Origin: a virus
Lineage: Duplodnaviria; Heunggongvirae; Uroviricota; Caudoviricetes
Direction: 5' to 3' (one strand)
Virus record (IMG/VR): IMGVR_UViG_2537561946_000006
Length of the DNA: 64,000 bases
Shown: positions 3,001 to 9,000 of the stretch, in pieces
Layout of the letters: each line of letters starts with the position of its first letter
How positions within the stretch are numbered: position 1 is the stretch's first letter
Position numbers: made by a program

Positions 3001-6000
3001 CTGGATGAAATAGGCGTTCAGCGTGAGACGAAAAACGAGCAGGTGGTATTACACCAGATAATTGATCGCCGGACAGCATCACTGTGCAGTGTCGGGATGT
3101 TAACAAACCTGAATCATGCCGCAATGAGTACACTTCTTGGTGAGAGGATTATGGACCGCATGACCATGAACGGTGGTCGATGGGTGACGTTTAACTGGGA
3201 TAGCTGGCGTCCAAATGTCAGCAATATGAGGGTTGTGAAGTAATTTTGTCCGGAGGAAATTTTAATGGAAACCGTATCTGACGCACTGAAAGCACTGAAA
3301 AAAGCCTCTTCACATGTGGTGGCAGCTCGCCTTGGAATCAGTCGTGAAGAGGCTGTCAACGAGCTGTGGGAACTCAAAAGAAATGGCGTCGTTGATAAAA
3401 CTGGTCACACCTGGTTTCTGGCTGGCGAAGGTGAATCCCGGGTAACCGAAGAGCGGCCAGTAAAATCTGAAGCACAGGATATGCTGACCGGGGAGGTCGA
3501 ACAAAAAGTTACCGCAGACATGATGATTGAGTTTATCGGTCAGGATGGGGCTAAAACGTGTGAGGAACTGGCGGGTAAGTTCGGTGTCAGTACTCGCAAG
3601 GTTGCTTCCACGCTGGCGGTGGTAACCGCAACGGGGCGGCTGGCACGCGTTAATCAGAACGGTAAATTTCGTTACTGCATGCCGGGCGATAATTTACCAG
3701 CAGAGCCGAAAGCCGCGCTGGTAACGGAAAGTGATGGTAAGGCCTTTCCTCAGCCAGCAGGTGCTGCGTTACCAGTCCGGGAAGCCGCAACACAGGAAGA
3801 AATTAAAACAGAAACTGTGGCGGACATTGTGCAGCCGTTGCCATCGTTTACCGAAACGCAAGCAGATGAGCTGATTTTTCCGTCCCTTCGCAGGGCAAAC
3901 CTGGCGCTGCGCAGGGCGAAAAGTGATGTTCAGAAGTGGGAGCGAGTCTGCGCCGCGCTGCGGGAGCTGAACAAGCACCGGGATATTGTTCGACAGATTA
4001 CTGATTCTTCCCGCCGTGTTGTATCGGAAAAGTGATTGCCGGAGGCGCTTATGGCAAAAGTATTTACACAGGAAGAGCGGGAAAAAATTAAAGGGCAGGT
4101 TGTTGAGCTAGTACGCCGGAGTGGGCGCGAGACGTTACGGCAACTGGAAGCCAAGACAGGTGCGACAAGATATCTGATGAGCGTTCTTGCCAGAGAGCTG
4201 GTTGCCAGTGGCGATGTATACAACTCTGGTTACGGGTTATTCCCATCTGAACAGGCTCGTAAGGACTGGCAAAACGCCCGCAAAAAACTATCGAGGGCAA
4301 AACTGAAGAAACCGGTTGTGGTTGATCCTGACCTTATCTGGTCATTACCAGACGGAGAAATACGCCGCTATGACAGGCAATTGAACATAATTTGTAGTGA
4401 GTGCCGTAACAGTGAAGTGATGCAGCGAGTTTTGATATTTTACACAGGAGTAATGATGGAATAGTGAAAATAACATGAAACCTTTGGATTCTGGTGTTTC
4501 AGTGGATGGGAAAAGAGCAGATACATAGAAAATGAATAGCAATAATTCACAGTCTGGATGTTGTTTGTATGCTTATAAAATGATCCTAGTATGCATTGCC
4601 GGAGTTGAATCAGCTCCAATGAAGAAACTGAGAGGAGTATTTAGAAGATAGCTAAATGGATGTAATTATTAGTATCTAAAAAATAGTATTTTTGAAATGG
4701 GTCTAAGAACACAACAATGTACAAATGAGAAGTTATCTTTTAATATGTTCAAAGACCCATTAGGATTGATATCAGTTATGTTAGCTAGATTGATAAAGTG
4801 ATTACATATTTTCTGTTATATGCTGAAATGAATAATGCTATTCCAGAGTGCAGCAGAGAAAGTCTCCTGATGATTGAGCTCTGGAAATTGTACAATAGAA
4901 AAATTACTGTATTTTTCTGTCAAAATATTTCTCAAAACAGATTCCGCTTTGATGGCTTCAGGATATAAAGATGCGGAGTAATCAAGGCTAAGATTTCCGT
5001 TAAGCAAGCATATACTTTTAGTGTGCTTTGATTCTGATATATCATCTTTAATTATCTTGATGATTCTTTCATTCTGCCATAGAAGTGATGGTGCAGATAT
5101 ATAATAATAGTTAAAGCATGAATTATTTTTTAAGCAATCAAGCACAAAAATAGCACCTAGCGAGTGCCCCCATATACCGATTCTGGAACTGTTCGGAGCA
5201 ATAGTACTAACCCATGGCATGATCTGAGTTAGTAATAATTCTCGGAAAGACTGGCTTCCTCCACCAGTAAAGTAGATCCATGCTGGTTTAGAGTTATCAA
5301 CAATAGCATTTTCACCATCAGGAGTATAATCGTAAGCACGGCGATGAATGCTAAGGTTATTCCAAGATTCATAACCAAGTGTAACTAACACTGGTGGATT
5401 GGGTAGTGCATCAATAACAGGCAGAATATCAGAAATGTAATTGTTGGCACTATTCCCATCAAGTATATAAAGAGTTGCATTATTTTTTTTAATGTTTTTT
5501 GGAGTAAAAATACATATTTTATATTTGGTGTCATGGTTAATTGAGTTAAATATGCGTGTTTGACAATGAATGTCCATATGTTTAGTCATGCGTTCTCCCC
5601 ATGAGCATTAAAGGATGCTTAAGATATGCTATGTCACTGATAAAAAATTTGTTGTGTGTGTTTAGTTATTTTATCTACCTCCATTATGATTTAAGACTGA
5701 TATATGTTATCAGCAAAGGTACATCGTTATTATTTTACCTGTCAATACATTTGATATTGATTAGCGTTTACATCGCTTGCTTAGGAAATTGAAGGCAGGT
5801 AACTATCATGTCAATGAACTAACCCACAGTCTAACGTACTTCTTTCCCCAATCACCAACAACCAAATTCCTGTTATCACCACTGGGATTTTGGCGCAACT
5901 TCATGGTGCAGAGGTAAATAGCATCAAGCAAAATCTCTTTTTCCGTTGTTGTCCTTATGGGACGTCTGTCTTTCTGACCGATTTCATATTGGCGAGGTAA

Positions 6001-9000
6001 TGGGAAGTTAAGTAGAATAGCTGCGGGTGCTTGAGGCTATCTGCCTCGGGCATGAACACCAACGGCAGATAGAGAAAAGCCCCAGTTAACATTACGCGTC
6101 CTGCAAGACGCTTAACATTAATCTGAGGCTCAATCTATGAACGGCAAATCTAGGTTAGCCTCTTACGTGCCGAAAGGCAAGGAGATGTATGGGTCCACCA
6201 CATATTGCAATTTTTATTCTCTTTTAAAATATATTCCACGGGCGTCATTAGTGCGAGCGCCTTGTGGGGTCTTTTGCTGTTATACAGCACCAGATATTCC
6301 GCCAGCTTCTGGTTAAATAGCGCCAGATCTTCAAAGAGTAAAATCTCATTAAATTCAATAAACTGCTCTCTTAACGTCCGGTTAAAACGTTCACAGATAG
6401 CGTTCATTTTTGGCGTGTAGGGATAGGTCCAGAGGTGTTTGATAGCGGCTTCCTGCAGCGTTTTGTCGAAGTTTCCCAGGAACTCTTTTCCGTTATCTGT
6501 GATTATCTGGCTGATACCGACCGGGAACAACCGGGCTGCGCGGCTGAAGAAGTGATTGACGATATCACTGTTGAGTGACGGCACAGCCAGCGCCAGCGCG
6601 TAATTGCTGCATTCGTCGATCATGGTGATGACATAGCGACGCAGTTCGCCCATTCTGAGCTCAATGGCGTCCATCCCAATGAGCTCACCTGTCTTTACCG
6701 GGCGGTAGTGCTTTGGCCTGCGGGGTTTGGCAGACCGCTTTTTGACAAGCAGTGCCTTCCCCCGCGATCCCAGACGCACAGGTATCATCCGCATTTTATC
6801 ATGTGCGGCAGCGATCATTCTGCCGATGGTGGAAACACTCGGACAGGCCAGATAGCGCTGTTCGCACCAGGGCTTCAGGCGAACAAAAATCTGCTCTTTA
6901 CCGAGGTTCGGCAGCTCTGTCCTGAGGCGTCGAATCTCTTTCAGCACATCGGGATGCCAGTGTTTTTTTCGTCGCACCAGAGGTGCCTTACTGTGCGGGA
7001 TTAGCCCCTCAGGTCCTTCCTTGTTCAGTAACTGACGCCACCAGTAAAGCGTGCGGCAGGACACGCCAAAGGCTTCAGAAGCTGCAGAAATACCGTGTTT
7101 ATCCCAGAAGTGCAGAGCCTTCATTCTCATTGTTGCTATATCAGCCATCACTGAAAGCCTCAACGCATAATCGGCCGTTTGGTAGTACTTAGGATAGCCA
7201 ACCATCAGATGCTGCATTTGCATAGTGCAATCTCCCCTTACTTATCCGGAGGCAATTGCAATATCTCTGTGAACTTACACAGGAGAAGCAGGCTATGAAG
7301 CAGCAAAAGGCGATGTTAATCGCCCTGATCGTCATCTGTTTAACCGTCATAGTGACGGCACTGGTAACGAGGAAAGACCTCTGCGAGGTACGAATCCGAA
7401 CCGGCCAGACGGAGGTCGCTGTCTTCACAGCTTACGAACCTGAGGAGTAAGAGACCAGGCGGGGGAGAAATCCCTCGCCACCGCTGATGTGTCAGGCATC
7501 CTCAACGCACCCGCACTTAACCCGCTTCGGCGGGTTTTGTTTTTTCTGGTCGTTCTGGTTTACAATCCATCCGTCAGCCTGAACAACTGGCACCTGCTGC
7601 GCCAGCAGAGAAAACAGATGGCGCACGATACCAAATTTTACAATTCGGATAACTCTGCCGCCCCTGCCAGCAGGCACGGGCGGCGTTCTCATGCATTCAA
7701 ATCTGACTGGTATCAGCACGACCCCTGCACCGAAGAACAGGCTGAATGGCTGATTCAGTGTTACCGCAGGCGCGGATACGAGATTAAGAAAGCCCTCAGC
7801 CTCGACTACCGTCACTGGATAATCTCCGTCAGGCTTCCTTACTCCGAACGCCCACCGCGTCCGTCCCGCACATTCCAGCAACGGATCTGGAGGTAACGTG
7901 CGGGTATTACTTCGACCTGTTCTGGTACCGGAACTCGGGCTGGTGGCCCTTAAGCCAGGTCGTGAATCCATGCAGGTATTTCACAATACCCGGGTACTGG
8001 TGGAGCCGGAACCGAAAAGCATGCGTAATCTGCCGTCCGGGGTCGTTCCTGCCGTTCGCCATCCGCTGGTGGAAGACAAAACATTGCTGCCATTTTTCAG
8101 CGACGAACGAGTGATTCGTGCTGCTGGTGGTGCTGGTGCATTGTCTGACTGGCTGTTGCGCCATATTAAATCCTGCCAGTGGCCACACGGCGATTATCAC
8201 CACAGCGAAACTGTCATTCACCGTTATGGTACCGGCGCAATGGTGTTGTGCTGGCACTGCGACAACCAGTTGCGTGACCAGACCTCCGAATCACTCGGGC
8301 AACTTGCTCACCAAAATTTGTCAGCATGGATGATTGACGTCATACGCCATGCAATGAATGGCACGCAGGAGCGGGAATTATCTCTGGGTGAATTATCCTG
8401 GTGGGCGGTCTGCAATCAGGTGGCGGATGCGCTACCAGAGGCAGCATTACGTCGTTCTCTGGGGTTACGTGCGGAAAAAATCCGCTCGGTGTACCGCGAA
8501 AGCGACATCATACCGGGAGAACAGACAGCCACCAGCATCCTGAAACAGCGCACAAAAAATCTTGCGCCGCTGCCTCACGCCCACCAGCAAAACCCGCCAC
8601 AGGAAAAGACGGTGGTAAGCATTGCCGTTGATCCGGAGTCTCCGGAATCCTTCATGAAACGACCTAAACGTCGCCGCTGGGTAAATGAGAAATACACACG
8701 CTGGGTAAAGACACAGCCGTGTGCGTGTTGTGGTAAGCCAGCGGACGATCCTCATCATCTGATTGGTCATGGTCAGGGCGGAATGGGAACAAAATCCCAC
8801 GATATTTTCACGCTACCGCTGTGTCGGGAGCATCACAACGAGCTTCATGCGGATCCGCTGGCGTTCGAAGAAAAGCATGGTTCCCAGGTTGATTTAATTT
8901 TTCGTTTTCTTGATCACGCCTTTGCAACCGGCGTGCTCGGGTAAAAGAGGTTACTGATGCGTATAGAGTTTGTTTTGCCTTACCCGCCGACGGTGAACAC

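Follow-up and report, generated by a model that had tools for sequence, protein, structure and literature searches.

The lambdoid prophage contained in the window (the whole stretch analysed, 64,000 nucleotides of the virus record IMGVR_UViG_2537561946_000006 in IMG/VR; Caudoviricetes) carries, in a variable slot of the Sp4/Rac type, a single AT-rich gene for a leaderless alpha/beta-hydrolase which very probably belongs to the IroE/PfeE/BesA clade of siderophore esterases, a statement that concerns the family assignment alone. As to function, we consider it slightly better than an even bet (roughly 0.55 for the statement as a whole) that the gene is a moron which provides the lysogen with a cytoplasmic, dyad-type serine esterase of the IroE family acting on catecholate-serine esters. 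The gene is already present in the databases as "alpha/beta hydrolase" or "hypothetical protein" (ECs1077), and its placement in the siderophore-esterase clade is a useful annotation and not the discovery of a new kind of system; it appears to be a fairly ordinary prophage cargo gene, a leaderless, prophage-borne offshoot of that clade. The placement nevertheless supplies a concrete and cheaply testable hypothesis for a gene of an important pathogen.

The open reading frame at 4816-5589 on the minus strand, found by a scan for open reading frames, codes for 257 amino acids and includes the motif IWGHSLGA. On the minus strand its start codon is preceded by GGGGAGAACGC, with a strong Shine-Dalgarno sequence (GGGGAG) 5 nucleotides before the ATG. 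An in-frame stop is located five codons upstream of this ATG, so that a longer N-terminus is impossible. The maximum 15-residue hydropathy within residues 1-60 is 0.29, compared with 2.03 in the leader of one relative; since the first 60 residues are devoid of a hydrophobic stretch, the protein has no signal peptide or membrane anchor. An N-terminal signal of the type that confers periplasmic location on IroE, PfeE and Cee is thus absent, and the location of the prophage esterase is probably cytoplasmic, judging from the sequence. The gene has a GC content of 0.345 and a GC content at third codon positions (GC3) of 0.283, the latter to be compared with 0.48-0.62 in the adjoining phage genes. 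A first-pass annotation of this DNA had described a 257-residue alpha/beta hydrolase with a GHSLG motif, a strong ribosome-binding site, very low GC content and no signal peptide, and was correct on each of these points.

When searched as a single sequence, the esterase missed the gathering threshold of Pfam family PF00756 (17 bits as against a cut-off of 22 bits; E 0.005; residues 81-161 only). The relatives retrieved with the family profile all carry PF00756, and the closest solved structures are siderophore esterases; the membership in this family which the first-pass annotation had put forward for checking is supported in this indirect manner. NCBIfam yielded no match to the esterase, and PHROGs assigned it to family 8493, which has no assigned function. 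A phmmer search of the Protein Data Bank (PDB) returned IroE (2gzr) as best match, with an E value of 5e-26 over residues 8-253 and about 28% identity, followed by BES (E 9e-13), PfeE (E 1.5e-11) and fungal siderophore esterases. With a family profile that included the prophage esterase, E values were 2e-124 for IroE and 8e-63 for PfeE. An AlphaFold model was built on an alignment of 77 sequences, with a predicted local distance difference test score (pLDDT) of 88 and a predicted template modelling score (pTM) of 0.90. Comparison of this predicted model with the PDB by Foldseek gave siderophore esterases throughout ranks 1-30, at template modelling (TM) scores of 0.74-0.80; these comprised PfeE, IroE, EstA/EstB, BES and an IroE-like Shewanella protein, with Fes coming next.

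The residues expected for catalysis are conserved. S143 (in G141-H-S143-L-G145), H240, D44 (in LDGN) and R84 (in RAYDYTP) are invariant in the 77 family sequences as well as in 10 prophage alleles, and correspond to Ser189, His287, Asp90 and Arg130 of IroE, respectively (2gzr chain numbering, offset +40). Asp90 and Arg130 are said to be of catalytic importance in IroE, a result attributed to Larsen et al. 2006. Ser189 and His287 form the catalytic dyad of that enzyme (PMC10515146). The mapping of catalytic residues which the first-pass annotation had proposed as a check therefore identifies the counterparts of all four IroE residues, while the acid of a classical triad is absent, as discussed below.

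Located in the periplasm, IroE converts enterobactin and salmochelin to linear forms when these are free of iron, and Fes works in the cytoplasm (PMC7403778). Ferric enterobactin is the substrate of the periplasmic esterases PfeE and Cee, which are linked to enterobactin receptors (PMC11852561), and ferri-bacillibactin that of BesA (PMC8891985). Because the chemistry is uniform across the clade, as represented by IroE, Fes, PfeE, Cee and BesA, a catecholate ester is the substrate class we favour for the prophage esterase.

Among the characterised enzymes, IroE (encoded in iroBCDEN; PDB 2GZR/2GZS) is the closest solved sequence. The predicted fold superimposes on it with TM scores of 0.76-0.80, and the four catalytic and auxiliary residues are shared. 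Unlike IroE, which has a leader, is periplasmic and is encoded within a siderophore cluster, the prophage esterase is leaderless and is encoded alone in a prophage; it also lacks the PNIADKGS segment that opens the IroE crystal chain, and has Asn or Ser at position 197 in place of the Glu of the enterobacterial "MEG" motif. PfeE of Pseudomonas aeruginosa provides the top Foldseek matches (6gi0, 6gi1, 6gi2 and 6gi5; E about 5e-18) and has the clade and the GHSxG elbow in common with the prophage esterase, from which both PfeE and Cee of Campylobacter differ in being periplasmic and receptor-linked. BES of Bacillus (PDB 2QM0) resembles the prophage esterase in being leaderless and about 260-275 amino acids long, residue 20 of the latter aligning to residue 29 of BES, but is more distant in sequence, as its E value indicates. 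Hydrolysis of a catecholate trilactone in the cytoplasm, as proposed here, would match the cytoplasmic action of E. coli Fes, although Fes is further off and is extended by an additional domain at its N-terminus (Foldseek E about 1e-10; TM score to the target 0.46). The genes for BES and Fes both lie on the chromosome of their respective hosts and are regulated by iron. Leaderless relatives are already known, BES among them, and the earlier description of a solitary cytoplasmic esterase as "unusual" phage cargo was for this reason a mild overstatement.

Close relatives of the esterase were found in E. coli prophages only. Among 5.8 billion clustered proteins, the matches consisted of E. coli proteins with at least 83% identity and one protein at 31%. 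An exhaustive HMMER pass over 1.84 billion representative proteins detected nothing between 33% and 83% identity; the same pass yielded 998 distant relatives, the best of which was a Pantoea protein at 31% identity. No close relative was present in 185,579 species-representative genomes, and no close copy in the deposited phage genomes of INPHARED, where the only matches were distant iroE genes in mislabelled records. IMG/VR contained 19 copies. Within the 5426 complete E. coli genomes searched, 471 possess the gene, in one or at most two copies per genome (458 at 99% identity or more, 13 at 90-95%), and gene coverage was at least 80% in 467 of the 471 genome copies. In O157:H7 strain Sakai the esterase gene bears the tag ECs1077 and belongs to prophage Sp4; it is carried by essentially all of the listed O157:H7 genomes and by many of serogroups O26, O103 and O145. 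Every E. coli copy inspected is located in the same prophage slot, including copies in prophages with a different replication module. A clearly orthologous housekeeping esterase with a conserved place on the chromosome, which the first-pass annotation had named as the outcome that would speak against a cargo gene, was not observed among these genomes. Concerning the distant relatives, 104 of 136 representatives have an N-terminal extension of at least 20 amino acids with a hydrophobic segment (median extension, 35 amino acids), and the leader-free minority is more distant and BES-like. Because its nearest relatives bear leaders, the prophage esterase looks like a periplasmic-type enzyme that has lost its export signal.

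The gene forms part of a self-contained module. The GC content is 0.29-0.39 across about 4350-5850, compared with about 0.53 on either side, and the low-GC module proper spans about 1.4 kb (4465-5842; GC 0.31-0.35), a stretch shared by esterase-module alleles of 87-91% identity. The 3' flank of the gene is 80-82% identical to that of the diverged variants, which is about the neutral rate, and contains a long, conserved, terminator-like hairpin (arms 88% complementary; predicted fold -32.3 kcal/mol, z = -3.26; none of 200 shuffled sequences as stable). The 5' flank is 87-98% identical between alleles, as compared with 80% in the 3' flank, a level exceeding neutral conservation; positions 5670-5765 are nearly invariant even in the most diverged alleles. 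A candidate sigma-70 promoter lies in this segment, and a perfect palindrome covering its -35 element is conserved across all diverged alleles; these may represent the promoter of the esterase gene and an operator, respectively. An assignment of the palindrome as a LexA box was considered and rejected, as by our own reading of the sequence its spacing is off by one. Likewise rejected were small proteins in the flanks (open reading frames 4532-4651, 4697-4801 and 5601-5792), all of which are interrupted by frameshifts or stops in diverged copies, and the flanks are for this reason regarded as non-coding. The AT-rich non-coding flanks of the first-pass annotation, which were drawn out to 6149, stand for 4465-4815 and 5590-5842 but not for 5843-6149, where an ORF6N-like remnant and the hok/sok promoter and leader are located. 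Rfam contained no known RNA matching within 4465-5842, the sole real match being sok at 6025-6191, and no convincing transposon-like terminal repeats, direct or inverted, were found at the ends of the module.

The stretch 4465-5842 is thus a horizontally acquired single-gene moron consisting of a promoter region, a ribosome-binding site, one gene and a terminator-like hairpin, with expression signals that are predicted: its composition is foreign, it is present or absent between conserved phage genes, and it has a putative promoter and terminator of its own. In these respects, and in being directed against the lytic operon within a variable slot, it resembles other lambdoid morons of the region between the replication genes and Q, and the earlier picture of a solitary, leaderless, AT-rich cargo esterase is upheld. 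It differs from them in its cargo, as esterases of the IroE family were not found as such in INPHARED phage genomes or in the literature searched.

According to the reading we prefer, the esterase would be expressed in the lysogen from its own promoter region. S143, activated by H240, would attack the ester bond of a catecholate (2,3-dihydroxybenzoyl-serine) trilactone siderophore or of its linear oligomers, the substrates being enterobactin-type molecules which E. coli makes or imports. The reaction would take place inside the cell, as for Fes or BesA, and not in the periplasm as for the closest relatives, so that an IroE-like scaffold would perform a Fes- or BesA-like task. The lysogen might profit as a result, through a change in the release of iron or in the pool of linear enterobactin products. 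Should the enzyme indeed act in the cytoplasm on enterobactin-type molecules, the prophage would tune the iron and oxidative-stress physiology of its host; if not, the gene would represent an ordinary cargo hydrolase.

A number of observations weigh against this reading. The characterised enzymes are only about 28% identical to the esterase. Among the positions strongly conserved in the family (in at least 85% of its members), 44 are kept and 41 are changed or missing in the prophage protein; those lost or altered include the leader, the PLGPNIADxGS motif, F (C9), W (C26), LPF (NNL at 77-79), R (F107), E (N197) and G (Q241). Because many family-conserved positions are changed, the binding pocket may not be shaped like that of IroE. 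Asn occupies positions 197 and 199 in the dominant, near-clonal O157-type allele; residue 199 is D or E in every minor allele, and residue 197 is S in some of them, which means that the acidic residue at 199 was lost in the dominant allele. The acid proposed to complete the triad of PfeE is E217 (PMC11852561); in this column, three residues past a conserved Gly, BES also has Glu, while IroE has Thr and the prophage esterase S201. The missing acid is not disqualifying for an enzyme of the IroE type, because IroE, with its Thr, is itself regarded as working with a dyad; at this position the prophage esterase resembles IroE, neither having the acid found in PfeE and BES. The family-conserved Glu immediately before G198 (N197 here) was also considered as the equivalent of the PfeE triad acid and was rejected, as PfeE has Arg in that place and its E217 three residues past the Gly.

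The genetic context and the low quality of the Fur-like matches likewise weigh against this specific substrate. All copies inspected are flanked by phage genes (DUF977, hok/sok), with no siderophore synthesis or uptake gene linked to the esterase. Its closest relatives, from Pantoea and Acinetobacter, are also encoded singly, outside siderophore clusters. The best Fur-like match upstream of the esterase gene reaches 14 of 19 positions of the 19-mer consensus (shuffle p about 0.02), and the best match to the Fur 7-1-7 core 11 of 14 (p about 0.06), both of which are weak. A perfect Fur-type 7-1-7 palindrome (14 of 14), TGATAATTATTATCA, which also matches the classical Fur box at 17 of 19 positions, occurs elsewhere, at 18647-18661. 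This site, the sole match of at least 12 of 14 in the window, falls in an intergenic region, with a YlcI/YnfO-like gene on one side and the gene for the small terminase on the other. In addition, the benefit of the esterase is uncertain because E. coli already has Fes, and individual copies are disrupted: IS1203 interrupts the gene in the O26:H11 11368 lineage, and one IMG/VR copy (L034) is frameshifted. In the library searched, no paper was found on WP_000160654, on ECs1077 or neighbouring ECs tags, or on prophage siderophore esterases. An array study of growth on epithelial cells listed "Z1341, unknown protein of CP-933M" among the induced genes, along with exbB and chuU (PMC2654852); Z1341 might be the esterase gene, but this result was given no weight here.

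Several of these points favour an enzyme of the same fold and chemistry with another substrate, that is, a cytoplasmic serine esterase acting on an ester, lactone or depsipeptide other than host enterobactin, for example a siderophore of foreign origin, a toxin linked to a siderophore or some other small acyl metabolite. The changed or missing family positions, several of them in loops by the active site, would be consistent with such a shift, as would the isolation of the lineage, the lack of linked iron genes and of a clear Fur box, and the orphan status of the closest relatives. We regard this explanation as rather unlikely, given that all characterised members of the clade, from bacteria to fungi, hydrolyse siderophore esters, and that the four residues tied to IroE catalysis are kept.

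A more far-reaching version of the enterobactin reading, which we consider improbable, is that a temperate phage captured a periplasmic-type siderophore esterase, removed its export signal and now uses it to re-route the enterobactin pool of the lysogen. By one route, faster iron release would lead to Fur repression of the TonB-dependent receptors that serve as doors for rival phages and colicins. By the other, linear enterobactin trimers would be formed, which are known to protect Salmonella against peroxide (PMC7403778). If this were true, the esterase would be a prophage-encoded fitness, exclusion or stress-tolerance factor of lineages of Shiga-toxin-producing E. coli.

Sequence variation among the alleles indicates that the protein is under purifying selection. 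The ratio of nonsynonymous to synonymous substitution rates (dN/dS), determined against the alleles of 87-91% identity, is 0.16-0.17 at a dS of 0.24-0.32, and variable sites in the 10 alleles are distributed over the three codon positions as 23/13/51; because of the dN/dS of about 0.16, the protein is considered to be maintained. These data bear on the notion of a silent hitch-hiker, in which a 5'-truncated iroE-like gene lost its export signal at capture, is silenced on account of its AT-richness, makes no contribution and persists merely with the prophage. In E. coli, H-NS typically silences AT-rich DNA of foreign origin. Such an origin would be in keeping with the loss of the leader and of the conserved N-terminal motif of the relatives, with the occasional disrupted copies, and with the near-clonality of the dominant allele (the 458 genomes mentioned above), which fits a recent spread with the prophage. 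It is improbable in view of a low dN/dS over substantial synonymous divergence, catalytic residues that are invariant in all 10 alleles, the strong ribosome-binding site, an upstream block conserved beyond neutral expectation, and a slot that remains unchanged between prophages whose replication modules differ.

On the plus strand, the order of genes around the module is repressor/cro-like region, O-like gene, IstB/DnaC-like ATPase gene, DUF1627, DUF977/Ren-like gene, island, hok/sok, DUF968, RusA and Q. The esterase module opposes the early-right operon, which, to go by this gene order, must cross the module antisense in order to reach Q. Homology with island-free prophages ends at 4427-4462, at the end of the DUF977 gene, and returns at 5970-6003, before hok/sok. 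The corresponding slot of other E. coli prophages (loci L002, L003 and L004) contains QueH in one prophage, a 505-residue protein of no assigned function with an IS30 element and a restriction endonuclease in a second, and several small genes with a methyltransferase in a third. Because different prophages hold different cargo between the DUF977/Ren-like gene and hok/sok, this slot is regarded as a cargo hotspot. Roles in siderophore hydrolysis and in phage-host conflict, both raised by the first-pass annotation, are speculative. That the esterase is a defence or counter-defence component in phage-host or phage-phage conflict is very improbable: the slot does have a Ren-like exclusion gene on one side and a toxin-antitoxin locus on the other, and houses a restriction enzyme in another prophage, but no PADLOC defence model matched at E values up to 0.1, the gene has no partner, and no defence role is known for the family.

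Table 1. Features of the esterase module and of the borders of its slot (positions in the window)
Feature	Position	Strand	Basis
DUF977 / Ren-like exclusion gene, conserved left border of the slot	4036-4464	plus	Pfam DUF977, E 4e-27; PHROG 142, E 5e-45
AT-rich non-coding 3' flank of the esterase gene, GC 0.313	4465-4815	minus	composition; allele comparison
Terminator-like hairpin, arms 4696-4711 and 4746-4761, followed by a U-rich run	4696-4761	minus	inverted repeat; RNA fold
Coding sequence of the leaderless IroE-family alpha/beta-hydrolase, 257 amino acids	4816-5589	minus	open reading frame scan; ECs1077 / WP_000160654.1
AT-rich 5' flank travelling with the esterase gene, GC 0.340	5590-5842	minus	composition; allele comparison
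Shine-Dalgarno sequence GGGGAG	5595-5600	minus	5 nucleotides before the ATG; read from the sequence
Candidate sigma-70 promoter ATAACA-16-CATAAT	5710..5683	minus	promoter scan
Perfect palindrome CTGATA-N5-TATCAG over the candidate -35 element	5697-5713		sole copy in the window
Remnant, 28 codons, of the N-terminus of a presumed ORF6N/antirepressor-like gene, ITNNQIPVITTGILAQLHGAEVNSIKQN	5851-5934	plus	translation; partial pseudogene in RefSeq in identical copies
hok promoter-like site TTGGCG-18-TAGAAT	5989-6018	plus	promoter scan
hok/mok leader and sok antisense region, right border of the slot (border region 5989-6191)	6025-6191	plus	Rfam sok RF01794, 102 bits, E 3.8e-23
IS481-family element inside hok/sok	about 6186-7280	minus	alignment to the copy without the insertion sequence in strain E2865

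The short remnant to the right of the module, which on account of its resemblance to ORF6N N-termini may derive from an ORF6N/antirepressor-like gene, is probably older cargo of the same slot and does not belong to the esterase module. Further to the right, hok/sok is interrupted by an insertion sequence (IS) of the IS481 family, which is flanked by a 6-bp target duplication (AGGAGA) and codes for a transposase with rve and helix-turn-helix domains, annotated as IS481 family transposase in RefSeq. With the element in place, the hok open reading frame (about 7295-7450) is cut off from its promoter, the leader and sok; most copies of the island lack the element. The transposase is neither part of the esterase module nor its boundary. 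The first-pass annotation had placed the esterase between replication genes and a transposase gene; the left side of this description stands, while the transposase gene does not delimit the module and belongs to the element within hok/sok. The transposase open reading frame (6150-7223, minus strand) does not meet a stop until 36 nucleotides beyond the element, and the same insertion adjoins an island allele of 87% identity (L005).

Just 3' of hok, a sub-threshold Rfam match to the Hfq-binding small RNA IsrK (27 bits, gathering score 50) was noted at 7459-7540 on the plus strand, overlapping a terminator. Two tRNA genes, tRNA-Met(cat) (11544-11619) and tRNA-Arg(tct) (11720-11796), come after a gene for an N6/N4 DNA methylase (10445-11494); this stretch (10445-11796) corresponds to the usual tRNA cluster found downstream of Q in lambdoid prophages of the Shiga-toxin type.

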